Shown piece after piece: positions 3,480-64,000 of a stretch of DNA of 64,000 bases (its first letter is position 1; every line of letters begins with the position of its first letter). Both the position numbers and the translations under genes were made by a program. The DNA comes from Dipteris shenzhenensis. Taxonomy: Eukaryota. Location: NCBI GenBank assembly GCA_047967505.1, contig CM106538.1, one strand, 5' to 3'. The notes under the pieces are model-generated. The model saw only the letters and a program-made list of their open reading frames with translations, was not told the DNA's origin and did not search any database.

Positions 3480-4610
3480 CAACGTTAGCACGTAGCATTG
3501 CTAAGTGCTAATTGCTAGGTGCTAAGTGCTAAGTGCTAGGTGCTAAGTGGCAAGGGCACTAAGTGTTAGGTGCTAAGTGCTAAGCACTAGGTGCTAACCA
3601 CTAAGTGCTAAGTGCTGTGCTAAGTGCTAAGTGCTAGGTGCTAAGGGCTAAGGGTTGCTAAGTGCTAAGTATTAAGTTGCTAGCACTGCCAAGTACTAGC
3701 ATTGCTAAGTGCCATTTGCTAAGTGCCGTTTGCTAAGTGCTAATTGCTAAGCACTAGCATCGCTAAGTGCTAAATGCTATGTTCTAAGTGCTAATTCCTA
3801 GTGCTAAGTGCGGGCATTGCTAAGTGCTAAGTATTAAGTTGCTAGCACTGCCAAGTACTAGCATTGCTAAGTGCCATTTGCTAAGTGCCGTTTGCTAAGT
3901 GCTAATTGCTAAGCACTAGCATCGCTAAGTGCTAAATGCTATGTTCTAAGTGCTAATTCCTAGTGCTAAGTGCGGGCATTGCTAAGTGCTAAGTCCTAGC
4001 ATTGCTAAGTGCTAAGTCCTAATTGCCAAGTGCTAGCTTTGTGTAGTGCTAAGTGCTAAGCAATAGTATTGCTTAGTGCTAATAAGTGTTAAGCGCTAGC
4101 TGCTAGCATTACTAAGTGCTAAGTGCTAAGTTGCTAGGAGTGCTAATTGCTAAGTTCTAAGTTGCTATAATTGCTTTGTGCTGTATGGTAAAACTACCAT
4201 AAGTGTATGTCCTAAGTAATAGTATAGCATTGCTATGCTTAGTGCTAAGCTCTAAGTAATAGTATAGCATTGCTATGCTTAGTGCTAAGCGCTGAGTTGC
4301 TAGCAATGCAATTGCTAAGTTCTATGTTGCTATAAGTGCTAAGTGCTACACTGTAAGTTCTATGTTGCTAACAATGCCAATTGCTAAGTTCTACGTTGCT
4401 ATAGTGCTATGTGCTACGTGGTAGTTGCTATAAGTGCCATGTGCTAAGTGATAGTACATCACTACTATACTTAGTGTTGCACGCTATCCATAGCATTGTT
4501 AATTGCTATGTGTGAAGTAATAGTATAGCATTGTTATACTTAGTGCTATGCGCTATCCATAGTAGGGCTAATTGATAGTGTATCACTTCTAAAGTGGATA
4601 TGTGCTACAC
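3480..4610. repeat. Degenerate 7-bp (TGCTAAG)n satellite with higher-order 162-bp and 40-bp duplications
   Basis: Directly visible; ATTAAGTTGC at 3671/3833 and CGGGCATTG at 3811/3973 (162-bp period); 40-bp repeat at about 4212-4290. Confidence 0.92.
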
Positions 4611-9755: not shown

Positions 9756-10109
9756 TGACAAAATATGAAGAGGGGAGAGAAGAGTGGAGATGAGGAGAGA
9801 GGGTACAGCTAGAGAGCACACTACAAATGACTAACTGTACACTAGATTTAGTTGAAAAAATAGAATGTATACAAGCCCATTTAGGGTTAGGGCTAGGGAT
9901 CTAACTCTTTCCTTTATAGCACTCTATAAGGTTAGTGCTATGCACATATGATCACGTGATGGTGCTATGCACACATGATCACATGATGTTGAGCTTGAAC
10001 TCTCAACACCTTCCCTCAAGATCAACATCATGAAGTAGGCCTTCCCTCAAGATGATGATTCTGGGAATCGAAGAAGGATTGAGCATTACATTCCATCACA
10101 CCACTTTAA

Positions 10110-13100
10110 TGGGAATGTACTTCCTCTGCGTTAAACTAAGAGCTAGTCAGTGTTTCTTGAATAGCTCTTTATCGAATGGTTTGGTAAAGATGTCTGCAAC
10201 ATTCTCTTTGCTATCACAATGTTGCAGTGTGATGTCACCAAGTAACACTCTTTCTCTGATGAAGTGCTCTCTCACATCAATGTGCTTTGTCTTGTAGTAA
10301 TATACTGGATTCTTGGCCAATGCTTGAGCCGATTGATTATCACTGTATATTGTTGGCTTTGACTCATCAAAGTAATCTATTTTTGACAATAGTCTTCTGA
10401 GCCATATAGCCTCACATGCACCTGTAGTGAGTGCTCTATATTTTGCTTCAGTCGAAGACAAAGAAACATTTGGATGTTTGTTTGACAACCATGATATAGC
10501 ACCTTGACCAAGGAAAAATGCATATCCCTGTGTCGCGATCTCCTAGTCTCATGATCTCTGGCATAGTCACTGTCACAGTATCCCATGCAACCGTGGATGA
10601 CTTCCTCTGTATTCTATCCCAAACTGTCTTGTACCTCTGATGTATCTCAAGACTCTTTTGGCTGCATTCCAGTGAGACTGTTTTGGATTTGTTTACTAGT
10701 GAGCTTACTGCATAACAAATATCTGGCCGTGTGATTGTCAGATATATAAGAGATCTGATGAGTTGCCTGTAGTATCTGTCATTGATTGTAGGCTTTTCTA
10801 AATCTTTAGTAAGTTTCAAGCTCTATTCCATGGGAGTGGCTGCAATCTTGCAATCTGCCATATGAAACTTCTTCAGGAGACTATCAACATACTTGAGCTG
10901 ACTCATGAATGTGCTATCTGAATATCTCCAGAACTCAATTCCAAGGTAGTAGTGCATAAGTCCAAGATCTTTCATGTCAAACTCTATAGATAAGTCTTGT
11001 TTCAATTTTTTGATGAAGCTTTCCTTGCTTCTTGTCACAATCAAATCATCTATGTACAAAAGTGCAATAGTAATGTCTTCCCCTTGAACTTTATAGTAGA
11101 GAGTATGATCTGCATTGGATTTCATGTATCCCAGATTAGCAAAATACTTATCAATTCTGCTGTACCAACTTTTGGGTGCTTGCTTTAAGCCATAGAGACT
11201 CTTGTTGAGATGGCAAACCTTATTCTCCTTTCCTGGTTCAACATAACCTGCTGGTTGTTGCATGTAGACTTCCTTAGCTAGATAACCATTGAGAAATGCA
11301 TTCTTGACATCAAGCTGATACATATTCCATCTGTTGAGTGTCACTAGTGATATCAAGAACAGTATGGAATCCATTTTTGCTACTGGAGCTAAGTCTCATC
11401 ATAATCTTGACCATATTGTTGTGCAAATCCTTTTGCAACTAGTTTGGCTTTGTATCACTGTATACTGCCATCTGGATTGTACTTCACTTTGTATACCCAT
11501 TTGTTTGCTATGGCCTTCTTTCCTGCTGGAAGGTCGCATAATTCCCAAGTATTATTCTTATACAAAGCATCCATTTCTTCATTCATAGTAGTTTGCCATT
11601 TTGGCTTGTCTACTACGTCTTTGAAGTACATTGGCTCTTCTGTAACCATGATGGTAGTCATAAGAGCATAGTTGGTGGTTTCCACCTGAATTGCTTCGCC
11701 TTTCTGAGCATATGTCAATCTAGTTGGAGGTCTGCTTTCCCTAGTAGACCATCTGAGCTGCTGTGGCTTTGCTTGGGGTGTTGCTGGAAATGCTTGCTCT
11801 TCTTCATCAACCTGTTCTGTAAATGACTGTGAAATTGATAGTTCTATCTCCTGTGTAGGTGAGGTTTTCCATTCTGATTCCTCATTAAAGATTACATCTC
11901 TGGAGATAATGACTTTGCACTTGATGGGATCATATAATTTTTATGCTTTTCTTTCTTCACTGTAGCCAACCATGATGCATTTGCGTGACTTCACATCCAA
12001 TTTCCTGCGATGATCATCATGTATGTGGGCATATGCTATGCAGCCAAATATGTAGAGATGCCCAATGTGTGGCTTGTGTCTAGTGAATGCTTCATAAGGA
12101 TTCATACCCTGTATTGGTTTGGTAGGAAGCCAATTAAGCAAATAGTTTGTAGTGGCTATTGCTTCTGCCCAATACTGATTCGAAAGATGCTTTTCACTAA
12201 GCATTGCTCTAGCACTGTTTGCTAAAGTCCCATTCTTCCTTTCAGCTCTTGCATTCTACTGACAAGTATCTGCACATGTGAATTGTCTTCAAATGCCGTG
12301 ACTTCTGCAAAAGTTCATGAATGCTGAAGACATGTCTTCACCTCCTCTATTTGATCTCATGACCTTGATCTTTCTACCTATCTGGTTTTCTACCATGGCT
12401 TTGAATTCTTGAAATCTAGAAAACACTTCAGATTTCTCTTTCAAAAAGTAGACCCAACAATATCTACTGTAGTCGTCGATGAAAGTCAAGTAGTAAAGTG
12501 AACCATTGATGCTGCGAATCTGGGCATAACCCCATACATCTATATGTATCAAATCAAGAATACCTTGTGCACAAGAGGTACTTCTGACAAAGTTGGCTTG
12601 CTTTTGTTTGCCGAAGCAGCATGTTTTGCAAACTTTTCCAAGAAAGTGTAGCTTTGGAATCCCAATTGCCATATTCTGATTCCTGAGATCTAACAAGTAC
12701 CTGAAGTTGACATGACCATATCTCTTGTGCCATTTTGCAGATAGTGGCATCTGTTGCGGTTGAGCTGATATGGCATGCTTATATGGTACTGTAGCTAGCA
12801 TTTTGTATAAGCGTCCTTCCTTGACACCTTTTGCTACTAGCTGACATCTTTTGGATTTGTCTCTGATAGTGCATTCATCACCGTTGAAGGTGACTCGATA
12901 ATTGTGTTCGGTCATTTGACCTACTGACAAGAGGTTCTTGCTGAGCTTCGGAACATAGAGCACATCTTTCACCAATCCTTTCATACCGGTGAAATTATTC
13001 ATAGGGATAACAGCTATCCCTTGAATTGGATTCGGTGTATTGTCTACTGTGTAGATGACATTTTTTTGACCTTCTAATGGTTTCATTTTTGTGAACCATT

Positions 13101-14020
13101 CCTGATGATTTGTCATGTGAGATGATGCACCGTTGTCGATGTACCAAGGATCCTGTTCCACTTGGTCGATTTGATAGTTGAAATCCTCTTTGGGATTGTA
13201 ATCAGTGTTTGGATACACTATATCAGTCTAATGCATTTCCTCGCTTGTAAGAAACATATTCCCATGTTCATTTGCAAAATGACTATGACTAGAATGTCCA
13301 CCACGATGATTTCCTCTGCCTCGAGAATTCCCTCGATTTTTGCTGGATTGACCGCCTTGGTCGTACTGCTTCTTGCGGCAATCTCTTTCATAGTGTGTAA
13401 ACTTATGACAGTAGTTACATTGGATGTTTGACACATTGGTGGATGCATTCCCTCATCCTTGAAATCTTCCTCGGTTGGAATGATTTCCTCTTTGCTGATT
13501 TTGATGCTACTGGGGATAATGCTGATGCTGATGCTGATGATGACCACTTATCTGGTATGATCTACCTCTACCTTCTCTGCTTCTATTTGAAGCTGTGAGT
13601 GCCTGATCATTAGAATTACCTTTGCGTGCTTGGATGGCCTAATTCCTTAGTTCTTCACTAAGTAGGAGTGACTGAAGTTCTTCCAATGTCAAAATTTGCC
13701 ATTGAATGGTAATACTTTGAACTAGATTCTCGTATCCCTCTCCTAGTCCATTCAGAACGACTTGAACCATTTCTACAGGGTTCATAGTCTCTCCTGCTGC
13801 TACAAGTTGATTGTTGTAGTCTTTTATGCCGAGTACATAAGCATGACTAGTTTCGCTGCTGTTGTGAAAACTCTAGTTGATCTGGTTTCTCAGGGTGAGA
13901 ATCCTAGATGTGTTCTTGGACTCGTAGAGAGCTGCGAACATATCCCATGCTTCTTTCGATGTCTTGATTGTGTTGAGCTATCCTAGCATGACATCTTGCA
14001 ATTCTGCTTGATCAGATGTC
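10110..14020 (-). pseudogene. gag-pol: Copia gag-pol (gag, zinc knuckle, protease, integrase, RT, RNaseH) with stops and frameshifts
   Basis: CNYCHKFTHYERDC, WYIDNGASSHMT, YYLTFIDDYSRYCWVY, QLDVKNAFLNG, LYIDDL, KTKHIDVREHF in Copia domain order. Confidence 0.95.
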
Positions 14021-14769
14021 ATGAAAATCTCTGTATGAATCAACTGCAAATACAGTGACTATGCCAAGTAAAATCTCTCAACCATCGGTGAAGATAAAAC
14101 TACAATATATAAAATCTCTTATCTATATTACAAGGCTTGTGGCAATGATACTGGGAATAGCCAAGAGGCTTTACAAGGCTGAAATGATGTGCACAATGCT
14201 ATAAGATAGCTGAATAGGCTTTACAATGGTGGCATGTGTGTGTGAAATCAAGTGCTATCTACCCATTGAAACAATCTACAATGCCTCTATACTCTCTGAA
14301 GTTTGCTCACTAAACTGATGAACGTAAGGTTTCAGGTAATGTAATGATGTGAAACCGTATGTGAGTGTATGGACTGACTCCGAGTAGATACTAGTCGAGA
14401 ATTTTAGGCATGGCTTATATTGGCAACTTGGGGAAATTCAAAGCGTCCCCTCTATGGCGATCTAGTCTACTCTGATCTAGATCTATACCAACTATCAAGT
14501 GATGAAAGAACAACAAATAATTCCTTTTCTTTGTTCTTTTTAAGTGCAGGGTCAGATGCATCAATGTAGAGGCGAATGTGCATGAAGGAAATGGTTTTGT
14601 CAATGGCAAGGCTCAAATGTGAGTGTAACTTGCACCAAAATGTGCGTGTGATGTGACAAGCGTGTAGAGCATGAAAAAATGGGCGACTTTCCTTTTTGGA
14701 GCGCCCTAAAATTCTTCCTGGATCAAGAGATACGACTTGATCTAGGTGGAGGGGCAAAAAAGGAGTTGT

Positions 14770-15145
14770 CACTGTGGGTCACATGCAGTGATGATGTGGC
14801 ACTGTGCCAAGCAAGAGATGTGCCAGTGGAGCCCTGTGCTGAGGTGGTAGGAGTGGTCACATGAAGTGACTGTGGAGCACTGTATGTGCCTGTAGAGGTC
14901 AGTGTTGACTGAACAGCTAAGGTGGCACTATTGATGATGTCAGCAAATGATGTGGCAATGATGACATGGCAAATTATGTGGCATTGATGACATGGCATTA
15001 ATGATGTGGCATAGGTGATGTGGCTATGCTGACATGACAGTTGGTGATGACGTTGTAGATAAGGTGATGTGGCAAGCGCGAGAGACTACTGACATGGCAC
15101 TCATAATTGACGTGGCAGATAAGGAGATAAGGCCACGTGTCACAA
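14770..15145 (-). repeat. Array of TGCCAC(G/A)TCA-type motifs in the B leader (Hex/ABRE-like); second copy at 33340-33830
   Basis: Many TGATGTGGCA / TGACATGGCA / TGACGTGGCA units. Confidence 0.8.
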
Positions 15146-16035
15146 GGAGAGATAACAGAATCTATGGAGATTCTATCAAAATCACGTAGATTCTGTCGTG
15201 ATTGAGAATTCTATCGATATTTGTTAAGGTGAGTCGATTGAGAATTCCGTCGGTGAGCTTGGAGCTCTTGCAGATTCGTTGGTGCTAGATCATAGAGGAG
15301 CCGATATGAAAGCTGTTGCATTGTCTAGAGCACGGTGTAGGAGCCGCTTCCCTGGCATGGATTACTTTGGAGGCCCGTGGCTATGGGTGTCAATTTCATT
15401 GGAGGCTCGAGTCATTGGAAAAACTCTCTCCCTTGAGAGCTCTCTCTCTCTTAAAAGAGATAGGATAGTTCAATTCTATTTCTCTCAATGAAGAAGAATG
15501 AAATCAAAACAAAACAATACTCTCACTCTCTTTCTGTAACATAAATCTCTCAAAGAAGAAATGAAAAAAACAGAATTCTCAAATGAATTGGATGGAAATC
15601 TCTCATGAAATCTCTCTCCCCATAGATGGAAATTCTTCTGAATGAGAAGGAAATTTCTCTCTTTCAATGAATAGAAATTCTTCACTCAACAGAAGTGAAC
15701 AGAATGAAAGACTACCTCTCAATCTCACACTCTCAAGGATCGCAATGCCTCAGCGGAAGGCAAGGGAGCTCCGATACCATGACAAAATATGAAGAGGGGA
15801 GAGGAGAAGAGTGGAGATGAGGAGAGAGGGCACAGCTAGAAAGCACACCACAAATGACTAACTATACACTAGATTTAGTTGAAAAAATAAAATATATACA
15901 AACCCATTTAGGGTTAGGGTTAGGGATCTAACCCTTTCCTTTATAGCACTCTATAAGGTTAGTGCTATGCACATATGATCACATGATGGTGCTATGCACA
16001 CATGATCACATGATGTTGAGCATGAACTCTCAACA

Positions 16036-16963: not shown

Positions 16964-17979
16964 TATTAGTCGGAAAAGAAATCAGGACCAGAGGCTAGAG
17001 GCTAAGCATGGCGACGCTCGAGGCCATAGAGGAAAGGAGAACATGAGGGCGAAACATTATCATGGGAGGGGAAAAGGAATTAGAAGGGGAGGGAATGAAG
17101 AGGGAGACTATGACACAAGGGGAAAGGGAGAGGGGGAAGAGAAGCATGTACATGATGGGAGGAGGAATGTAAAGATCAAGACATCAAAGGAAGAGGACCA
17201 TGCTTTATTTTGAAAGGAAGAGAAGGGAGAAATCAAAGAACTAGCTAGGTGGCTTTACAAGAATGAGAGCGTCTCATCAAGGCATAGCCCCCTCCTTTTA
17301 TAGCCAAGAGAGGGCTCTCTCCCAATAAATGCATCCTCCCACATGTATGCACATGTATGGTGTGTGTGGAAAAGTCTCCCATGTGGGCTAGGCAGTTACG
17401 CACTCTCAATTGTGTGCGACAACCCTTTGCCTCATTTTTCCACATAAATCAAGCCCCATATCTCAAGTCTATGATATTCCCTTGGTCTCTCCCAATTTTA
17501 TAATATGTTCAAACCTCTAGGAGGACAAGTGGAGGGTTGGCACAAGGAATCTTGCCACCTCATCCTACTTTTTCCATTATTTAACTTGCATCCTTGGACT
17601 ATCTATACCTCCCCCACATGGGCCTATCCTATATGGAGGGAATAACCCAATATAATATCCATCTCCACCTATTTTATATTACTTCTCCCATGGACTTTGA
17701 GCCATATCTCACTAAATGCAGCCTAGGTAGAGGGGTGGCACATGGAGGAGCCATGCCACCTTACATTTTATAATATTACTACCATGGATTATGTACATCA
17801 TACCTTATGGGTCCTCTTACGTGGAAGGGTGGCACATGGTCATGCCTTGCCACCTCAACCCTGGGCCCTATGCACACCATATTTTATTATACTATTGCCA
17901 CACATACAAACACACACATATTAATGCCTTTTTCCTTAGACAAATTCTTGAGAATATACACGGATCCAAGATGTCATCA

Positions 17980-19674: not shown

Positions 19675-20663
19675 TTTCTATCAGCCGGAAAAAAAATCAG
19701 GACCAGAGGCTAGAGGCTAAGCATGGTGACGCTCGAGGGCCATAGAGGAAAGGAGAACGTGAGGGCGAAATGTTATCATGAGAGGGGAAAAGGAACTAGA
19801 AGGGGAGGGAATGAAGAGGAAGACTATGACACAAGGGGAAAGGGAGAGGGGGAAGAGAAGCATGTACATGATGAGAGGAGGATTGTAATGATCGAGACAT
19901 CAAGGGAAGAGGACCATGCTTTATTTTGAAAGGAAGAGAAGGGAGAAATCAAAGTACTAGCTAGGTGGCTTTACAAGAATGAGCACGTCTCATCAAGGAA
20001 TAGCCCCCTCCTTTTATAGCCAAGAGAGGGCTCTCTCCCAATAAATGCATCCTCCCACATGTATGGTGTGTGTGGAAAAGTCTCCCATGTGGGCTAGGCG
20101 GTTACGCACTCTCAATTGTGTGCGACAACCCTTTGCCTTATTTTTCCACATAAATCAAGCCCCATATCTCAAGTCTATGATACTCCCTTGGTCTCTCCCA
20201 ATTTTATAATATGTTCAAACCTCTAGGAGGACAAGTGGAGGGTTGGCACAAGGAATCTTGCCACCTTATCCTACTTTTTCCATTATTTAACTTGCATCCT
20301 TGGACTATCTATACCTCCCCCACATGGGCCTATCCTATATGGAGGGAATAACCCAATATAATATCCATCTCCACCTATTTTATATTACTTCTCCCATGGA
20401 CTTTGAGCCATATCTCACTAAATGTAGCCTAGGTGGAGGGGTGGCACATGGAGGAGCCATGCCACCTTACATTTTATAATATTATTACCATGAATTATGT
20501 ACATCACACCTTATGGGTCCTCTTACGTGGAAGGGTGGCACATGGTCATGCCCTGCTACCTGAACCCTGGGCCCTATGCACACCATATTTTATTATACTA
20601 TTGCCACACATACAAACACACACATATTAATGCCTTTTTCCTTAGACAAATTTATCCGTAATA

Positions 20664-21056
20664 GCACTCATTCTTAGCCTCTAGGCAGTCATTCTACCAA
20701 TCACCCTGTTCCAGTAGAACAACCAATTCTTCGGTTGATTTCCACCATGACCACTACCTCCTCATCTACGGCCATGGCCTCCTCCGCTACCACCTCTGGA
20801 ATAAGAGTGGTCCTAGGGGTCCATATTCCCAGATTGCTATGCATAGGAGGCTTCTAGATTGGTAGATGTGGGGGTTGTCCCTTGGATATACCCTTGCAAT
20901 TTTAGACCTCATCCATTGTAGTGACATTGGTATGTGGTGTGCATATTGGTCATACAGATGGCACACCACTTCTCATTTAAAGCACATTCTGTCATTGAGT
21001 GGCTAGAATTCCAATAGTAAATGCACTAGAGTTCCATTCTTCCTCTACCTGCCCTC
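20664..21056 (-). mobile_element. gag: Gypsy element E gag piece with Cys/His knuckles
   Basis: SHSMTECALNEKWCAICMTNMHTTYQCHYN; interrupted by D1 and C. Confidence 0.65.
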
Positions 21057-23664
21057 TGACAAAACATGTGTGCCTCAGGATCTATGGAGCACTCTAATGA
21101 TGGAACCTATGTGGAGACATGATGAAGAGAGTGCTCATGACATGTACCTCAAGTCAATTAGGTTCCAAGATAGATTAGCTTGGACTCATAAAGAGAATCT
21201 TGAGATAGTGTAAAGTGCTTGATTGATATTACTTCAAATGAACCTCCCTTTTATAGGTGAGGGTACTTACATCCATATGCTTGCTCACATGTGGGATATC
21301 TCCTCCATGCCATGTGGCAGCTTGCCCACATGTGCTCATGGCACCACAACTCTCAACACCTCCCCTTGGTGCCATGATCCTTTGGCTACTGCAAGGTGGT
21401 CAGATGTGAGTTACAAGATCAAATCCTCCCCTGGGTGCTTACATAGCTACTCTAAGGTGGTCAGGTTTGATTTACAAAATTAGGCAAGGTTGGCAAGGTA
21501 TTTGTTTCTCAATACATTCCATTGATGTCACCTTTTGGCTCATGGCTTGATGATGATGCTGTGTAGTTGACCTGTTGGTTCTTCAATCTGCAATCTTCTT
21601 CCTTATGTAGCTTCATGCATGATGCTTTATTCTTCCATGTGCCTTGATGCTTTATGTGTGGATGCCATGCTTCATGCTATGGTCATCTCATACACTTGCG
21701 CTTTTGGCATGCTTATGACAACGATGTGTGCATTCATGCTTTGCTTTTCCATTTGTTGCAAAGGTCTTACCAATTGATTTCTTTCAATGTTGGCAGTGTC
21801 TAATTGCATACAATGATTTTGACTTGATAAGCACGTAGATCTTGAAAAGACAATCACTTTTCCTTTTTGGAGTGTGTGCAAATTCTTCTTAGATTGCAAG
21901 TTATGGCTTGTCAAAGTTTCTGTGAAGAAGAGGGCCTTTGATGATGTGGCACAGGGATTCACATGCTGAATTCCATACTGTGCTTAGCAAGGGACTCTAT
22001 GCTTAGGTGGCACTATGCCATGTGGCAATCTTTAAACCCAAATAGGTTAACCCATGGTTACATTGGCTTTACCATGGTCCACCTAAATTGAACCTAACTA
22101 TAGACTTAACCACAGTTGAACTTAACCACACACACCCAACCTTATCTACCACGTGGCCTTTTTTAAGGAACCTTGGAGATTTGAAGGTTTGTTGTGTAGG
22201 GAAGGTCGACGACAGACGAGTGGCTTCAACGGAGGGAGCTCGAGGATGGCGGGTGGAGGTGTGGCTAGGAGAGATTCATCTCGCGAGCTTGGCTTCTCTG
22301 CGCAGCTACGTCCTTGAACAACAAGTTTGCATGAAGGGATTCTTCGGAGATATCGCTACTGCTCATGAGCGCGCCACCATGGTCTCTGGCAAAGCTCTCG
22401 GGAACTTTTGAACTGTTGTAGCTTTCACCGCCGAGGAGGAAGTGGTTGAGCTCTTCGCTCACGAACTTGCCGTGGAAGATTAGCTTGTGTGTCGACGTTG
22501 CAATGGAGAGAGTCGTTTGCTGTTTGCTTCGGTCGCCGGAGTCGCCACGTTTGGAGACAGAGGAGAGTTGTTGCCTTCTGCGTCAAGTCGCCTTGTCTGC
22601 TGGTTGAAGGGCTTTTCAGAGGCTGTAGCATGGGCGTTGCATTGGTGATGGCTTTCTAAAGTCGGACGTCGACTAGAGAGGTCAAGCAGACTTACACAGA
22701 GAGTCCGTCCCATCGATGCTCGGATGATCCAGTCAAAGCCCGTGGGCTACCAGATGCGCTTTTGGTAGAGCTCTTTGTAGAGGTCGGTGGAAGAAGCTTG
22801 CTAGCTGCGCTGTAAGCTAGAGATGGTGTTGCAAAGGCCGACTGAAGGACATCAGTCGTGCTTGAGGGCTGGAGCACTTGAAGGCTCTGGTTGTGTGGAA
22901 GGTAGTTGAAGATTTGGAAGCTGGAGCTAGCCCATGTGCATGGAGCTGCCAAGAGATATTATAGGAGGTCGGTTCAGTAGAGGCTGTGTTGAGCACGTCA
23001 ATGGAGAGCCATCTATGGAGGCACTTGATAGCTTGCTCTTGGAGATGGGGAGCTACAGAGTTTGTTGCTCATTGGAAGGAGCACTGTCTTGCTTGTCGAA
23101 AGGAGCGCTATCACTCAGACTGAAATCTCTCACCTCTCTTTAACAAAAGAAACACTCTCAAACTCTCTTGGAACACCTCTCTATCTCTCTCTCTCAGCAC
23201 AAAGAGTGAACTCTCACAAAACAATTGAACGGAAATCTTCAACTCTCATGGATGGAATTCTTTCAATCTAAAAACTAAAACTAACCTAAGAGAAAAAACA
23301 TGACCTCCTAAGACATGCCTACAACTAATCTAGGAGACTAGACCTAGGCTCTGATACCATGACAAAACATGCGTGCCTCAGGATCTATGGAGCACTCTAA
23401 GGTGGATGGAACCTATGTGGAGACATGATGAAGAGAGTGCTCATGACATGTACCTCAAGTCAATTAGGTTCCAAGATAGATTAGCTTGGACTCATAAAGA
23501 GAATCTTGAGATAGTGCAAAGTGCTTGATTGATATTACTTCAAATGAACCTCCCTTTTATAGGTGAGGGTACTTACATCCATATGCTTGCTCACATGTGG
23601 GATATCTCCTCCATGCCATGTGGCAGCTTGCCCACATGTGCTCATGGCACCACAACTCTCAACA
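21057..23664 (-). mobile_element. Young non-autonomous LTR element C (2.6 kb, no gag/pol) carrying host-gene fragments
   Basis: LTRs 21057-21358 and 23360-23664 nearly identical; TSD CCCTC at 21052-21056 and 23665-23669; perfect PBS TGGTATCAGAGC 23348-23359; PPT 21359-21368. Confidence 0.96.
22304..22475 (+). pseudogene. Captured ABCB/P-glycoprotein transporter fragment (transmembrane domain, likely TMD2), antisense to element C
   Basis: SYVLEQQVCMKGFFGDIATAHERATMVSGKALGNF*TVVAFTAEEEVVELFAHELAV follows the plant ABCB pattern KGF.GD...AH..A...AGE...NIRTVAAF.AE......F..EL; the stop TGA sits at the Arg (CGA) of IRT. Confidence 0.85.
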
Positions 23665-24420
23665 CCCTCTAGACACCACATAGCTCCCTTTTCCTCCTTT
23701 ACAAAACTATCATCCAAGCTCTCATCATTGGACTCTCCGTTGTTGGCTCTATGCTTTTTCCCCAATGGTTTCTTTTTGGATTTGATTTTTCCTTTTAATG
23801 TCTTGCGATGCTTGGTTATTTGACGTTGAAGCATGCCTCCCCCACATGGATCACTTGCACAACCACATCTTTAGGTGCATTTGCACTTTGTGCACAATCA
23901 CCACCATTGTCTGTACATCCTTGTCCAGTCTGGCAATAAAGTACTCATTGAGAACTTTCATCTTGCGAGTTGTTGTGCTTGAGGAATGCGTTGTAGGAGT
24001 TGATGGAACTGAGCCACATAATCTTTGATATCTTGATTGCCCTACTCCAGGATTCGCAATCCTTCTAGAGTTTGTGGAATTGTCTTCTCTTCACAAAACT
24101 GCCTCAGGAATGTGACCCTGAGAGCATCGTAGGTTGTGAAGTGATCTGCAGGGACTCTGCTAGCCATCTTGATGCTGTCCTCTCCACAATAGACTAAATA
24201 GTGCTTCCTTCTATGTGGCGTCCACAACACTTGGCATGTTGAGTGTGTAGATCTTGTTGAACTATTGAATATGTGTGTCACATGTCCAAATCACATCTTT
24301 GGATTTCCCCAAAATTTGGTATACTTGACATTCACTGCCCCGTTGTTGGAACCATAATGATCGAGACAATTGGAACTGGTCTACCTCCTACTATTGGTGA
24401 TTGAGGTGTTGTGATTGGAC
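23665..24420 (-). mobile_element. gag: Gypsy element E, N-terminal gag piece
   Basis: ORF 24042-24281 FTTYDALRVTFLRQF (retrotransposon gag-like); follows the C TSD. Confidence 0.6.
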
Positions 24421-24991
24421 CTCTCAGGAGGAGTCAGCACTGACCTCACTTGCTTCACAGTCGGTGAGGATGGTTCATGCAGTACTGTCCACCTAGAATA
24501 AGATGTAGAGCAGGCACCAAATGAGAACACTGCTTGTGCTTGGCAGAGTGACCTCGCTGCTCCTCGTAGGGTGCTCTGGCTCCCTAGTAGGCATCACCAT
24601 GCTCCAAAATGCTTCTAGCAAAGTTCTTTGGGTTCTTCTAAACATCTCCCCCATCGCTGTCAAGAATCGCTGTAAGCAAAAATGGATTGCCTAGGCTGTT
24701 GGGCCAATGCATTGTCGAAACTAGGGGTTTTGGAGGTCCTTGCAATTGTGTTTGCATGCGTGTTGTTGGTTTGTTCCACTAGATGGCCAGACATACGCTG
24801 ACCTTTGGTACACAAATGCCAAATCTACCAAACCAACATGTTGGCTAGGCACAAGTCACCAAAAAAAGCATCTCGCGGGTTTGTCTCGATAGAGAAAAGT
24901 GAGAGAAAAGCTTTGTTTGCACCTCGCTGATCTACAGGCACTTGCAAAAAATGCTCGCTTGCAATTTAGCTATAGAGACCATAGGTCATAG

Positions 24992-27600
24992 TGTTGAGAT
25001 ATCGAGCTCCACTCGCGATATGCCAGGGTGATTGTTGTGCATTTATGTCACCGACTTGTTAGCTGGAGATGCGGTTGGTACACTGCCCACGAATAATAGC
25101 TAGATGACAGCTATCCTTATCTACACTAGTTCGTGGCTCAGTTAGTATGCCACCTTAGTTAGTTGAGTTTTGTTTGAGACCCACATATAGGGTTCTTCTA
25201 TTTCTTTGTACTAGAGTTCTTTTGGCTTTCACAACTAAGAAGAGGAAAACTGTTTTCAGCCTCCACCTTTGTGTGTATTCCCCCATTGTGCTTGTGAGAA
25301 AGCCTCAAGTGAGACTCCTTCCCTCTCTCCCACTATCTTCACATGGTATCATAGCCTTGTTCGTGGTAAGGAGCTCAAAAAAGCAAACCAAGTTCACAGT
25401 GTCCTGGTAAGAGGACAAGTGTTGCTTTCCTTTTTCGAGTTTGGGAGCAAATCTCTGCAGGTAGCACAGCCGGAAGTGCAAGAGTGCACTGTCTCAGATT
25501 AAGACGCCCTTCGCAATGTGGCAAGAGGGCATTATATGCTGCGGGCAAGAGCAAAGCCCTTGGTGACTTTATTTTTCTGATTCGAGGTCATTTCGGGGCC
25601 CGTTTTGGAGGCGGAAGTTCTCTGCAGGCACTCAGAAAAAGGCCCTGTTTTTGCTGTGTGACCACTGCTCGGCTAGTCGGTGAAAAGTTTCCGCAGAAAT
25701 TGCATCATATGCCTGTGTGCAGAGATATTGGGAGTTGCAGATTCATGCTTGTTGCCTGTTGATGCAAAATCGTCACTAGGAAGTGATTGTGTGGTGAAAT
25801 ACCACTTTCGTCAGTTTTGTAGATCTGCCCGTGTGAGGCAAAAGCTGTGTTTTTTGCAGTGACAGAATATTTTGCAGTGTTCTGTAATGGCATCTGATTC
25901 TCTTTCACAGATCGTCACTGAAAAGCTTGACAAGAACAACTTCCAAGCATGGAAGTTTAGAATGACGAACTTCCTTATGGGAAAAGGCTACTGGGAGTTC
26001 ATTATAGGAAATGAAGAAAAACCAGTTCTTCCTAATGTTCCCAATCAACAGGAAATGCAGGCATTTAAAGGATGGCATGAGAGAGCCAGAAAAGTTATGT
26101 ACTGGCTGTCTATCAGTATTTCAGATTCAATGATTGTGCATATTCAGGATGCAAGTACGCCAAAGGTGGCATGGGATACTTTGGCTAAAATGTACAGCAC
26201 AAATATGCAGGCCAAGAAAATGCAGCTCAAGCAGGAGCTGCACAATGTGCAAAGAGAAAATATGAGCATCAATGACTACCACATGAAGGTGAAGAAAATT
26301 GCGGATGCACTTGCTTCCATTGGGTCGCCAGTGGATGATGACGATTTAGTTTCTGTGACCTTGAATGGTCTAGGAAAGGATTATGCACAGTTCCGGACAT
26401 CCATTGCCGTCCGTGAAAAATTTCCTGATTTTGAGGAGTTGATTGCTCTTCTAATTTCTGAAGAGCAGAGAAATGGTGGTGCATCTTCTTCAGGAGGAAC
26501 CTCAAAAGAAACTGTCTTCTACTCAAATGCTGGAAGGGGTAGAGGCAGAGGTAGAGGAGGCCGATCTGGAGGCCATGGTAGAAATGAGAATATGCAGCAA
26601 ACGTAAGAAAACCAATCCTATGCAGGAGGACGTGGTAACTCTAAAGGCAGGGGGAGCCAAAGAGGACGTGGTGGATGGCAGAGAGGCCAAAATGCAAACA
26701 GCAATGTTGAATGCTATGATTGTGGCAAAATGGGTCATATGGCTAAGGACTGCTATAAAAAGCAGAATGACATTATGAATGGAAAATTACAGCAAGGCAA
26801 TTATGCATCTTCTAGTAGGCAGGGTGATGATAGAAATGAGCATCTATTTATGGTGCAGCATATGACGTGACAAGTGCAGAAGAACGAAATGATGTGTGGT
26901 ATGTTGACTCAGGTGCGTCAAACCACATGACAGGTCATGCAGAATGGATGCAAGATGCAAGGAAAATGGAAAAGCCAGGATTTGTGGAGACTGGTGATGA
27001 TACTGCACATCCTATTGTGCAGATTGGTAAAATTCCTTTGTCTATGCAGGATGGGAAAAAGAAATACTTGTCCGATGTATTTCATGTCCCGAACATCACC
27101 AAGAACCTGGTTTCTGTTGGTCAAATGGTTGAGCAGGGCTTGCAGGTTAGATTTAATCCTCATGGATGCTTTGTTGAGGATATGAAAAATAATGGTCGCT
27201 TGATAGCAAAAGGAAAGAAGAAGGGCAGGATGTTTACATTGGATGCGGACATGCCTGAATTGAGTGCAGCAATGTTTGCACATGGGACCGATGTAGTTGC
27301 AGATATTGATATTTGGCACAAACCGATTGGTCATGTTAATATACAACGACTTAAATCAATGCAAGCCCAAAATATTGTTGCAGGATTGCCTAAATTCAAG
27401 GTTGCAGAAATGCACAAGGTTTGTGAAACCTGTCAATTTGGGAAACAGGCAAGAAAACCTTTTCCTAGGCATGTTCAAGAGAGTAAAAAGCCATTGGAAT
27501 TAATCCTCTCTGATGTGTGGACTACTAAAGCTGCATCTATTGGAGGCTGTCACTATTTTGTCACATTTATTGATGACTTCAGCAGAAAGCTTTGGGTGTA
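24992..27600 (+). mobile_element. Copia F1: 5' LTR, PBS, gag, protease and start of integrase; 3'-truncated
   Basis: LTR 24992-25343 (TG...CA); PBS TGGTATCATAGC; gag ORF 25872-26606 (EKLDKNNFQAWKFRM); WYVDSGASNHMT; FIDDFSRKLWVY. Confidence 0.95.
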
Positions 27601-31813: not shown

Positions 31814-34317
31814 TGTTGAGAGTTCACGCTCAACATCATGTGATCATGTGTGCATAGCACCGTCACCTGATCATATGTGCATAGCACTAACCTTATAGAG
31901 TGCTATAAAGGAAAGGGTTAGATCCCCTAACCCTAACCCTAAAAGGGTTTGTATATATTCTATTTTTTCAACTAATTCTAGTGTACAGTTAGTCATTTGT
32001 GGTGTGCTCTCTAGTTGTGCCCTCTCTCCTCATCTCCACTCTTCTCCTCTCCCCTCTTCATATTTTGTCATGGTATCAGAGCTCCCTTGTCTTCCGCTGA
32101 GACATTGAGATTCTTGAGAGTGTGAGATTGAGAGATTGAGAGGTAGTCTTTCATTCCATTCACTTCCGTTGAGTGAAGGATTTCCGTTCATTGAAAGAGA
32201 GAAATTTCCTTCTCATTGAGAAGAATTTCCGTCTATGGAGAGAGAGATTATTGAGTTCTTTGAGAGAGTTTCCGTTGAATTCTACTCATGTTCCATTCTG
32301 TTACGAGAGTTCATGCCTTGAGAAGTTTCTGTTTCGAGAGAGAGAAACCTTGAGTGTTTTCTGAGTTTGTAAGGTTCTTTGTGATTCAATCTCCTGTGTG
32401 AGAGAGGTTCCTGCACCTTCTACTACTCTAGCTGCAAGGCTCCTAAGCACTCCCACAGCGTGCTTCTCCTCCACAAGCCTCTAAAGCTCCAGTCGTCAAC
32501 TATGGGTAGGCTGAGACAACTCTCCAACTATGACTCGGCACAACTTCTATAAGGCAAACGACTTGATATTCTACGCAGCGTCAAGCACCTATGCAACCTC
32601 TCCAACGAGCAGCCCGGCTACTACAACAGCTCCCACCTACAACCAACGCAAGACACAAGTGACTGCCAGTGCAACGAGCAATCTTCTCCATCAACAAGCC
32701 CTGGCCTCGCCCAGTCAGCTCACAACAAGGCGGCTTCAATGTGCTCCGTAGGCACCAATCTCTGCAACTGTAGGCGACTCTGGCCATAGCTGCAAACAAA
32801 ACCGATGCTCCATCTGGATGTTACTCTCCATACATAGCCACAGACTTCAGATGGGCTCCCGAACAGCAAAGCTGCCTCCAACCAGCACAACAGCGAGCTT
32901 GCATTTGCAACTGGCCGCAGCGACTTCTCCTTCAATCAACAGCTACCCTCATAGCTTTTAGAACACGGACATCGATTGTCATAGCCAGAGCTCCTCGACG
33001 ATCAGCGCCATCTCCGACGACCGACGGCCTCTCGAGACTAGCAGCGCCAGCAACATCTATGGAGATGGAGCTTGAAGAGTGGTAGCAGCAACGGCTACAC
33101 ACACACAACGGGTGGCTCACGACGGCGCACTCAACTGCGGCTCCTGAGGCGGCGCATCCACTCCAAAGACAACGCCCGCACCCACGCCTTAGCCTACACG
33201 ATCAGCTAGCAGTCACAAAACTCACCAGCGAGTGCCTCCAACGAACGGCCTTCTCAACAAACCATCGGAGAAGATGACGGAATCTCCAAGATTCTGTCAG
33301 AATCTTGGATAGATTCTGGTGCCTCGCGTTCCGACACATGGCAGATAGAGTTTTGCCACATGGCAACCTTATCTCCAATTACCACATCATCAGGCACCCG
33401 GATGTGCCACGTGTAGTTGTCCTATCCACACTGCCACATTAGCATTAACACATCAGCAATCCATGTCATCAGGCCATGTCATCATCGACTGCCACATCAT
33501 CACCGATTGCCACGTCATCACCGATTGCCATGTCACTTGACACGTCATCAGTGACACATCATCAGCCACATCACCTGCCATATCATCAGTGACATGTCAT
33601 CAGCCACATCACTGTGCCACGTCACCTTGCTGACATCATCTGTGCCACCTCAGCAGTCCAGTCAACACTGACCCTCTGCAGGCACAGTCCCTTGCCAGGC
33701 ACACTGTGCACACACTGCATGTGCACACTCCTGCCACCTCAGCACAGAGCTTCACTGGCACACCTCTTGCTAAGCACAGTGCCACATCATCACGGCATGT
33801 GACTCACAGTGACACATCATCATTGAGCACCATTTGCACTCCTTTTGCCCCTCCACCTAGATCAAGTCATATCTCTTGATCCAGGAAGAATTTGAGGGTG
33901 CTCCAAAAAGGAAAGTCGCTCGTTTTTCGTGCTCTACGCACTCGTTACATCACGCGCACATTTTGGCGCAAGTTACACTCACATTTGTGCCTCGCCGACA
34001 AAACCACTTCCTTCATGCACATTTGCCTCTACATCAACGTATCTGACCCAGCACTTAAAAAGAACAAAAGAAAAGGAATTATTTGCTGCTCTTTCATCGA
34101 TCGACGGTTGGTTTAGATCTAGATCAGAGTAGACTAGATCACCATAGAGGGGACGCTTTGAATTCCCCAAGTTGCCAATCTAAGCCATGAAATTCCTGAC
34201 TAGTACCATACGCTCACATCCGATTTCACATCATTACATTACCTGAAACCCTACGTTCATCAGTTCAGTGAGCAGACTTCAGAGTACAGAGGCATTGCAG
34301 ATTGGGTCAGTGGGCAG
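31814..34317 (+). mobile_element. Copia B2: 5' LTR, PBS and leader with variable cassette; truncated before gag
   Basis: LTR 31814-32070; PBS TGGTATCAGAGC 32071-32082; about 33340-34317 homologous to B1 14270-15150. Confidence 0.95.
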
Positions 34318-61056: not shown

Positions 61057-62064
61057 TGTTGGAGGTGGTGGCCTTCACCCCTCACTTGAGAATGATTTTA
61101 TGAGTAGGGCTCCACGTACTTGACACATGGCACGATGAAAATGGGAGTAATCCCATATATAAAGGTGCTTTCATGGCCTTCACCCCTCACTTGAGCATGA
61201 TTTTATGAGCAGGGCTCCATGTACTTGACACATGGTACGATGAAAATGGGAGTAATCCCATATATAAAGGTGCTTTCTTGGGGGCTTCAGATAGAAAGGA
61301 AATTTTCCCCTCTCTATCACATCCATCCTGGGAATTTTTAGGAGGAGAGAGAGGCTCTTTGCATGGCTAGGTGGTAGGGCTAGGGATGGTAGGTCTAGGG
61401 ACCCCATACCCAATGTGGACATGTGGTTCGATATGTGGCAAACATGGTATTAGAGCCATTCGATTTTTATGGCAACTGTGTTGGTGGTGACTATCTCTTG
61501 GCTTACATTTGGTAGTTGTCCTTGGCTTTTGCTATGGTCTGGTGTTTGGTCTATAGACTTATTCGTGGCAATGTATTTTTTGTGGTGTAGAGGTGTTGCA
61601 GTCTCTAGTAGCACACATTTAGTGCAAATTTATTATGGCAACTATTCCTAACTACATACATGTGTCAGCCCCCTTGGACTTTGGTAGAAATGCTACTACC
61701 CATGGAATTTGAGGTAGGCCAGTCTTTGTGTTTGACATGGACTTTGTAGAAACTTTGGCTTGTCGGCTCCCGTACCATGTCACCTTGGTTTGTTTTGATC
61801 AGGTTCATCGATTTCGTTTACTCGAGGTTTGTCCACAAGGGGTGTTGAATGTGGTGACCATCACTCCGCACAATTTTTCACTCATGGCATAATGAACATG
61901 GGAGTAATCCTATACATAAATTCTCTATCTTAGGGGCCTTAAATATAAAGGCCTCATTTCCTCTCTCTCACACATCTCTCTTGGGAGGAGAGAGAGAGGC
62001 TCTTTGCATGGCTAGGGACTAGGGCTTGGGAACCCATGTACCTAGTATGGACATGTGGCATGAA
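61057..62064 (+). mobile_element. TRIM-like miniature LTR element J
   Basis: LTR 61057-61444 (with a 105-bp internal duplication); PBS TGGTATTAGAGC 61445-61456; ~390-bp non-coding interior; purine tract; diverged LTR 61843 to about 62064. Confidence 0.75.
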
Positions 62065-62318: not shown

Positions 62319-64000
62319 GGTTTGATGGAATGTAATGCTCAGTCCTTCGATTCCCCAGAATCATCATCTTGAGGGAAGGCCTACTTCATGATGTTGATCT
62401 TGAGGGAAGGTGTTGAGAGTTCACGCTCAACATCATGTGATCATGTGTGCATAGCACCATCACGTGATCATATGTGCATAGCACTAACCTTATAGAGTGC
62501 TATAAAGGAAAGGGTTAGATCCCCTAACCCTAACCCTAAAAGGGTTTGTATATATTCTATTTTTTCAACTAAATCTAGTGTACAGTTAGTCATTTGTGGT
62601 GTGCTCTCTAGCTGTGCCCTCTCTCCTCATCTCCACTCTTCTCCTCTCCCCTCTTCATATTTTGTCATGGTATCAGAGCATGGTTCTGCCTTCTGCTGAG
62701 GCACCATCCTTCTTGAGAGTGCGAGAGAGATTGTGAGATTGAGAGTTCTCTTGAGTGTTCTCCGTGAGAGTCCACTTCCGGTGAGAGATCTTCATCCATT
62801 CATTTGAGAGAAAATTTCCATCATTCCTTAAGAGATTTCCATTCATTTCTTGAGATTTCCTTGTGAGGATTTCAATTCATTTTGTGAGACTTCCAATGTG
62901 AGAGAGAGAGATATGCTCCTTCATTTCTTGAGAGAATTTTGATTGAGAGCTTATATTTTCATTATTGAGAGAAGAGTGAGAGAGCTTACAAAGCTCGGAT
63001 ATAGGGAGAGTTCATTGAGAGAAAAGAGAAAAGCTAAGGGCCGCCTCGATTAATCACTTACACGCAAATCTGCGAGGTCCTCTCTCGAGAAGAGAGCGCA
63101 AAATGGATGTGGACGACAAGCAAGGAGTTCTCCTATTAAGAGAAATAGGGAGAGTGTAAGAGGTAGTCTGTACATCAACTTTGAGACAGCCAGCATCTAC
63201 AGTTGCCTCTCCATCTACTCCAAAACAACAAGGGCGGCCGACTAGCTACAACGACTTCATCGAGTAGGCACCGAAATCTTTGGAGGAAACGATGACAAAA
63301 TATGAAGAAGCCTTATCTGCACTTCCAATCGGCTAAGCCTTGTCTAAGCTTCCAATTGACTGGATCGTCTCTGCCATCCTCAACGAGCAGCCTAATGAAG
63401 GCTTCACGAGCCATAGCGTCACCAATGACCTTCTGGTCGGCACTTCAACGACTTCAGAGGCCTTCAACAGTTAGTCATTGTGAGCCTCCTCCACCCTCAT
63501 GGAAATCAGTGTCGTGACCTTGGAGTCTGCACAAGCTACGCCTTCAACCTCCAGCCATGGACTTCAGACGGGCTCCCGAACAGCAAAGCTGCCTCCAACT
63601 AGCACAACAGCGATCTACGTCAACTTCGACTTTGGCACCTTTACCTGCATCTGCAACTGGCTGCAGCAACTTCTCCTTCAATCGACAGCTGCCCTCATAG
63701 CTCTTAGAACATGGACGTCGATTGTCATAGCCAGAGCTCCCTCAACGACCAAAGCATCCCTGACCCTGCAGTCTCCACAGGCTGCGCCATCGACAAGGGA
63801 CTCCAACCCTTCAGTACTCGAAGCTATTGTCTTGTAGCACGACAAAAGCTTACGAGCACTGCCATTCAAGCCTCTCCAGCCTAGCCTAGGCTCTTCTCTC
63901 TACTGCGCGTCCTTTCTCTCTACTATCCGGGATCCAACTAGCACACGGGCTTTGCCGCCCCCATCCACAGCGCTACGACTTGCACAGCATCCTGCCTCGC
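62319..64000 (+). mobile_element. Copia B3: ~90 bp of 3' UTR with PPT, LTR, PBS and leader with variable cassette; runs off the window
   Basis: 62319-62410 matches B1 10009-10100 (reverse complement); LTR 62411-62667; PBS 62668-62679. Confidence 0.95.

Follow-up and report, generated by a model that had tools for sequence, protein, structure and literature searches.

An antisense ABCB exon relic, very probably older cargo, in a recently inserted non-autonomous LTR retrotransposon of Dipteris shenzhenensis

Bs1 of maize serves as the plant paradigm of host-gene transduction by a long terminal repeat (LTR) element and, in the passages of the papers cited, is a low-copy element without a full gag-pol that took up exons of several genes without introns between its LTRs and became the source of an expressed chimeric gene (PMC7264820, PMC13317346, PMC4717578). 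Smaller carriers are described among the TRIMs (miniature retrotransposons with terminal repeats), including GmaRetroS15 of soybean and an Arabidopsis TRIM with a P450-like piece, for which the relevant sections give sizes of 1,172-1,449 bp (PMC4717578) and host pieces that are more than 70% identical to the gene (PMC4717578, PMC13317346). Besides Bs1 and the P450-like TRIM, the portions of the reviews concerned name Rider/SUN and, for rice, sorghum, and maize, put the LTR-borne fragments in the hundreds to thousands (PMC7264820, PMC13317346, bioRxiv 10.1101/777037), and the cited part of the last of these counts, for captures by Sireviruses, Helitrons, and Pack-MULEs in maize, 1,263 transposable elements (TEs) with fragments of 1,629 genes. 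Intron, orientation, and antisense go unmentioned in PMC3726574. Here we describe a 2,610-bp LTR retrotransposon, element C (21057-23666, sense on the minus strand), in a 64,000-nucleotide stretch of Dipteris shenzhenensis DNA (NCBI GenBank assembly GCA_047967505.1, contig CM106538.1; hereafter the window), which encloses at 22322-22474 the relic of one exon of an ABCB transporter gene.

In the terms of the cited part of the maize preprint, Sirevirus, Helitron, and Pack-MULE captures resemble the present one as exon fragments in silenced TEs and as a possible source of small interfering RNAs (siRNAs) against the donor, following the epigenetic-conflict model. With Bs1, element C has in common the want of a full gag-pol, the host gene material between the LTRs and perhaps the low copy number; it differs in holding one decayed antisense exon piece, with no open frame and no sign of splicing. 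It is akin to the gene-carrying TRIMs in being small and non-autonomous, with a 5-bp target-site duplication (TSD) and an internal host gene piece, but at 2,610 bp, with LTRs of 304 and 307 bp, it exceeds the TRIM limits (less than about 1.5 kb for the whole element and about 100-250 bp for an LTR), and the exon piece that it carries has an edge at an intron position and non-coding flanks. Where Pack-MULEs, as DNA transposons, have terminal inverted repeats and a TSD of 9 bp, element C shows LTRs and a TSD of 5 bp, together with a primer site and a polypurine tract. Pack-MULEs are nevertheless like element C in carrying, according to the passages cited, unspliced genomic pieces (exon plus intron) in either orientation (PMC4717578).

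The reading preferred here, to which we would assign a probability of roughly 70%, is that of a recent 2.6-kb non-autonomous LTR element carrying an antisense ABCB exon piece as older cargo. The plus-strand frame from 22298 reads LRSYVLEQQVCMKGFFGDIATAHERATMVSGKALGNF-stop-TVVAFTAEEEVVELFAHELAVED-stop, and the similarity searches used the translated frame with X at the stop. Against PDB chains, phmmer returned Arabidopsis ABCB19 (8woi_A) at E 5e-11, with query residues 7-59 lying on residues 849-901, and ABCB1 at E of about 1e-7; five of the ten entries at E<=1 were plant ABCBs and the others were at chance level. The same program run against 1.84 billion representatives found 38 proteins at E<=1e-3 and none at E<=1e-10, with a top identity of 57%. 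When all 38 were aligned with the whole window by tblastn, every one of the 22 alignments at E<1e-5 fell on the relic (best elsewhere, E 0.042), and a 53-column profile made from 11 long matches hit the six-frame translation of the window only at 22319-22471 (65.3 bits, E 2.2e-20; next, E 4.9). The Pfam ABC_membrane model alone remained below its threshold on the relic (E 0.036, 14.2 bits vs a cutoff of 28).

Four sequencing runs were also compared with the window at >=85% likeness, among which a 1,824-nt ABCB contig (X1 record 7, organism A, depth 493) matched 22322-22474 at 133 of 153 positions, with 20 differences and no gaps. The stretch bears the KGF...NIRTVAAF signature of the second transmembrane domain (TMD2) of ABCB proteins by both phmmer and profile, and is, judged by similarities far above chance, derived from an ABCB19-like gene. 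The ABCB origin proposed in an initial annotation of the locus is thereby borne out, together with the ABCB stretch itself, whilst its length of about 57 codons at 22304-22475 has to be shortened to 51-53 codons, with 22322-22474 as the secure coordinates, equivalent to residues ~851-901 of AtABCB19. No other part of an ABCB gene was found in the 64-kb window by tblastn of homologues or by an H-loop profile. The relic is not a functional gene, having an in-frame TGA, changed conserved residues, and neighbouring exons that were not found, and it cannot encode anything.

The carrier was delimited by a blastn comparison of 20000-25000 with itself, which yielded one repeat pair, the LTRs at 21057-21360 and 23360-23666, with 98.4% identity over 307 positions, two mismatches, and two gap openings; alignment by MAFFT gave three substitutions (two T/C, and one T/G beside the indel) and a 3-bp indel. 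On the minus strand the LTRs read TGTTGAG...TTTGTCA, with TG...CA ends, and CCCTC stands on both sides, which confirms the earlier description of near-identical LTRs (2-3 substitutions and a small indel) with a perfect TSD. The parts of the element are given below with their coordinates, strand, and basis.

21052-21056, no strand: left copy of the TSD, CCCTC, read directly, with the same 5-mer at 23667-23671
21057-21360, minus strand: 3' LTR in the element's sense, 304 bp, from the blastn self-match to 23360-23666 and the alignment
21361-21375, minus strand: polypurine-tract-like sequence abutting the 3' LTR, the minus strand reading ...CCAAGGGGAGG and then the LTR
21361-22135, minus strand: 3' internal region, family-conserved and non-coding, with 85-99% likeness to contigs of organisms A and B and open reading frames (ORFs) without a Pfam domain
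22136-22919, no strand: GC-rich copy-specific insert ('cargo') of about 784 bp with approximate edges, from skipping joints, a coverage gap, and GC
22322-22474, plus strand: relic of one ABCB19-like exon (TMD2), antisense to the element, from profile, PDB, and contig matches and from periodicity
22409-22411, plus strand: TGA in frame, in place of the Arg of the NIRT motif, the related contig having CGG (C at 22409, G at 22411)
22920-23347, minus strand: 5' internal (leader) region, shared in part with relatives, from joints at 22920, 23147, 23294, 23337, and 23338 and from X1, X2, and X6 sequence over 23104-23351
23348-23359, minus strand: primer-binding site TGGTATCAGAGC, an exact 12-mer abutting the 5' LTR
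23360-23666, minus strand: 5' LTR in the element's sense, 307 bp, from blastn and MAFFT against the left LTR
23667-23671, no strand: right copy of the TSD, CCCTC, read directly

The primer-site 12-mer, which we take to be the complement of the 3' end of the plant initiator-Met tRNA (iMet-type), has seven matches in the window at no more than one mismatch vs 0.53 expected; primer sites of this type are typical of Copia. On the same strand, the purine run AAGGGGAGG (reverse complement of 21361-21375) touches the left LTR. Since the sense of element C is thus the minus strand, the ABCB frame on the plus strand is antisense to the element, and the orientation that had been claimed for the fragment holds. 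The interior (21361-23359) measures 1,999 bp with a longest ORF of 121 aa, and not one of its 26 stop-to-stop ORFs of >=40 aa attains any Pfam cutoff; lacking gag, protease, integrase, and reverse transcriptase, the element is non-autonomous. It has no pol, its sole similarity to other elements of the window is a 24-nt match of primer site and LTR edge, and no further copy of it lies within the window. At a rice-type substitution rate of 1.3e-8 per site per year, the 2-3 differences per 304 bp of LTR correspond to an insertion age of about 0.25-0.4 million years. RNA reads of X17 (organism B), 27 in number, are confined to 21338-21410 (LTR end and polypurine tract), and 96% of them continue into unlike sequence, so that the LTR terminus and tract would be common to other, expressed element families; these reads carry no information on the expression of this copy.

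The centre of element C is missing from its relatives. Among the contigs of organisms A and B there is sequence for the LTRs, for 21361-22135, and for about 23104-23351, and element-type coverage of 22136-22855 was found in none of the four runs. Five contig joints of organism A lead from 21965 to 23294, from 22014 to 23338, from 22032 to 23147, from 22088 to 23337, and from 22135 to 22920, other letters between the joined ends being possible; the last comes from one X6 contig, and the other four skip 1114-1328 bp. GC content is 0.50-0.565 in the centre, with positive GC skew, vs 0.36-0.44 in the rest of the element. Going by these joints and the coverage, the segment without counterpart in the relatives, in which the relic is situated, measures about 0.8 kb and at most 1.2 kb. 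The 'cargo slot' of the initial annotation agrees with the relatives' skipping of the centre, but the same pattern fits deletion derivatives of a non-autonomous family equally well. No convincing terminal repeats or duplication bound 22136-22919. An inverted repeat of 18 nt with 72% complementarity lies near both edges (22126-22143 / 22881-22898), the sole symmetry there and probably due to chance.

The composition of the centre, being unlike that of the rest, would agree with a locus that is not one insertion at all but two family members or solo LTRs on either side of host DNA with an ABCB pseudogene piece. This is scarcely credible, given the identical 5-bp duplications that flank the LTR pair, the primer site and polypurine tract at the correct inner edges, and the sequence beside both LTRs, which in other runs is the family-conserved internal region.

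The case for cargo is made by the decay of the relic relative to the X1 contig. Among the 15 listed differences (five of the 20, near the alignment ends, are unlisted), ten are transitions with A/T in the window against G/C in the contig, two are reverse transitions, and three are transversions; by hand classification against the profile alignment, eight change a residue and seven are silent. The changes in the protein, contig first, are the following.

GEA to GKA
NIR (ATC CGG) to NF-stop (TTT TGA)
TVAAF to TVVAF
FNAE to FTAE
EEK to EEE

At the differing residues, the contig carries the ABCB family consensus. The relic thus has at least eight residue-changing differences in 153 bp, four of them at invariant or near-invariant ABCB columns, in addition to the stop; among the conserved residues, the Glu/Asp of A-G-E-A has become Lys, the Ile/Val/Met and Arg of NIR Phe and a stop, and the Ala of TVAAF Val. 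That the stop arose by decay of an Arg codon is upheld, but not the proposed single change from CGA to TGA, as the homologue has CGG and two transitions are needed. The transition bias would fit deamination in a methylated element. With the LTRs differing at 2-3 of 304 sites, about 0.75 differences would be expected in the relic since insertion; as the decay of the relic far exceeds the divergence of the LTRs, the relic would have been decayed already before insertion. Very probably, on this comparison of sequences, the relic predates the insertion and travelled as cargo. It is from these relative ages that we infer the cargo step, the retrotransposition of the fragment claimed at the outset.

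The same contrast bears on the possibility that the GC-rich segment and its ABCB piece entered after insertion, as break-repair filler, by gene conversion, or as a nested insertion, and were never reverse-transcribed with the element. The five joints of relatives without the segment and the weak inverted repeat near both edges are in keeping with such an entry, and so is the want of any second cargo-bearing copy in the window, the four runs, two metagenome scans, and the protein collection. Exact scans of metagenome contigs gave no match to a 24-mer across the TGA and none to an LTR 24-mer. In the word-index protein search, the ABCB fragment drew 529 candidates among longer proteins, none of them scored, and the 121-aa chimeric ORF at 22046-22408 drew 11 of near length, likewise none scored and weak evidence only. 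A search of sequencing runs returned no run with the whole element (best word share 0.13) and no RNA run was listed. Late entry is nonetheless unlikely, because a stop and at least eight residue changes in 153 bp are set against LTRs at 2-3 in 304: any filler would have required, as its template, an ABCB pseudo-exon that had decayed beforehand. Moreover, the segment has neither a TSD nor clear terminal repeats at its bounds.

We return to the preferred reading, of older cargo, and to the form in which the piece was taken up. The ABCB alignment was cut into a preceding (46 columns), a matching (53), and a following segment (45), each searched in six frames. Profiles of the preceding and following segments found nothing near the relic at E<=100, and the joined 144-column profile scored 58.7 bits, below the 65.3 of the exon profile. 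A profile of the H-loop of the nucleotide-binding domain and tblastn of 15 long ABCBs against element C gave chance-level matches only. Three-base periodicity reached 3.4-3.9 in the segments starting at 22300 and 22350, vs a 95th percentile of 3.12 and a 99th of 3.89 for the whole window, and was 2.8 at 22400 and <=1.5 elsewhere in element C, so that codon periodicity is limited to about 22300-22550. A profile match of the middle segment only, together with this confined periodicity, indicates the presence of a single exon-like stretch.

The boundaries of that exon may be traced in protein fragments that run into junk sequence. The residue before the boundary codon is Q in all six fragments concerned, consistent with a CAG acceptor; in P0021, P0024, and P0029 this Q stands where the full-length relative P0031 has E, and in P0010, P0012, and P0013 it occurs in fragment and real protein alike and is uninformative, the junk there appearing one residue further upstream. 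Six other proteins enter junk after 'RGQ', followed by V from GT. Together, these point to a phase-0 intron directly before codon 22322 and to a conserved 62-codon (186-bp) exon starting there, of which the relic would be the first 153 bp. The match of the X1 contig begins exactly at 22322; translated by hand, the contig reads PLLVSAAVAE upstream, the end of the previous exon, and PERRSLLRGN beyond 22474, the continuation of an ABCB, and it is a spliced (or intron-less), apparently intact ABCB coding sequence. In the window, 22322 is preceded by CAA, which a single G-to-A change separates from CAG, and the conserved intron position is precisely where identity to the spliced transcript drops, from 87% to 50%. 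A similarity that starts at the first base of the exon, with CAA in front of it, is what an unspliced source predicts. The crossing of an exon junction, which had been put forward as a check for RNA capture, was accordingly looked for and not found: the match starts at the first base of the exon, and the upstream-exon profile finds nothing.

Several points weigh against the reading preferred here. The 30 bases upstream of 22322 match the upstream exon of the transcript at 15 positions in register (hand count; about 7.7 expected, p of about 0.003), by which a badly decayed spliced junction retains some likelihood. The similarity stops at 22474, about 33 bp short of the exon end deduced above, and thus ends inside the exon, which makes the right edge an internal break that lends by itself no support to genomic capture. 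The remaining ~630 bp of the insert have no recognised source or coding signal and are GC-rich, which is atypical of plant introns. Seven of the 15 listed differences are synonymous, so that part of the 13% divergence is ordinary gene divergence and not decay, and the ABCB gene used for comparison comes from organism A, possibly another species. Lastly, amplification of the cargo-bearing form would call for a second copy, and none was seen in the window, the four runs, the two metagenome scans, or the protein collection.

The in-register matches bear chiefly on the capture of a spliced mRNA as in Bs1 and the TRIMs, in which a template switch to a co-packaged ABCB mRNA would have brought in the piece and the flanks would be decayed exons or parts of other genes. 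The published TRIM and Bs1 captures, which in the passages cited are exon-only (PMC4717578), speak for this course. The drop in identity exactly at the conserved intron position, the failure of both upstream and downstream exon profiles to match, and the lack of codon periodicity outside about 22300-22550 speak against it, and template switching to a mature mRNA would yield a sense, spliced insert and not an antisense one. We hold this explanation to be quite improbable.

Some further candidates for ABCB similarity in and around the exon were rejected. An upstream extension of the match to about 22238 appeared in tblastn, but the upstream-exon profile has no match there and the longer profile scores lower. 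A second ABCB piece at 23065-23151, with an H-loop-like 'GRSTVLLVER', and a second copy of the exon at 22911-23072 (both tblastn, E 0.4-0.6) are outranked by 12 other sites of the window under the H-loop profile, and a match as good as these lies on the opposite strand. An RG...G...GVA similarity at 22609-22665 is weak (-3.4 bits), and a continuation of the exon past 22474 with three indels was made out by eye only and is not significant.

Taken as older cargo, the piece would have come about as follows. Element C, a non-autonomous LTR retrotransposon whose initiator-Met primer site is Copia-style, inserted recently, and an ancestor of this copy would have acquired the exon piece, which may then have decayed without selection, chiefly by C-to-T and G-to-A changes, as in a silenced, methylated element. 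Present in the template RNA, the piece would have been copied with the element by reverse transcription using the proteins of an autonomous partner. The source was most likely unspliced, being either genomic DNA or a transcript in which the splice sites of the gene could not be used. We hypothesise an unspliced antisense source with read-through, for example by a family member placed antisense within an ABCB intron, and then a template switch back to the element RNA; such read-through would explain both the orientation and the boundary at the intron position. A bolder proposal, that an ancestor antisense in an ABCB19-type intron fixed the unspliced exon and that the family is now a dispersed, mobile source of antisense RNA or siRNA modulating an auxin-efflux gene, strikes us as very improbable indeed.

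Small-RNA cross-talk with the donor gene would be the only effect open to the relic today. With 87% identity to the sole homologue seen, and no more than 24 nt (22367-22390) between one listed relic-contig difference and the next, cross-targeting would be marginal. On present evidence the relic is without functional consequence and its interest is modest. The carriage of gene fragments is a known habit of plant transposons, of which element C is a clean example and no new kind. The mechanism of capture is documented, in the parts of the literature cited, for few cases, mostly sense-oriented and exon-only. Element C offers a tidy case of the less usual configuration, a single antisense exon piece with an edge at an intron position, which suggests an unspliced source, for instance antisense read-through out of an intronic insertion, and with the genome it would lend itself to a test of that route and of whether TE-borne antisense exon relics draw siRNAs to an auxin-transporter gene.

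The rest of the window consists of nested Copia and Gypsy elements, as judged by a Pfam scan of 83 of its 86 ORFs of >=90 aa, the other three lying in element C and having been scanned separately. The left flank at 20500-20623 is a repeat at high depth in X2 and X6, and no sequence of the four runs falls on the immediate flanks, 20748-21119 and 23724-24200. To the left of element C, direct repeats at 17022-17649 and 19738-20355, 95-99% identical and about 2.7 kb apart, resemble a small LTR-type element and are perhaps the 'element B' of the initial annotation. Further left lies an older Copia element on the minus strand (9777-16035), with an LTR pair of 95% identity, Pfam matches to RVT_2, integrase, and Pol_BBD at 10826-13227, and a primer-site-like 12-mer with one mismatch at 15768-15779. 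Two stretches of 269 bp at 31814-32082 and 62411-62679, 99% identical and 30.6 kb apart, each end in an exact iMet-type 12-mer and represent either a pair of young copies from the same family or a single, very large nested structure. The window also holds a perfect 162-bp tandem duplication at 3655-3978 and a 105-bp tandem with 95% identity at 61069-61278.

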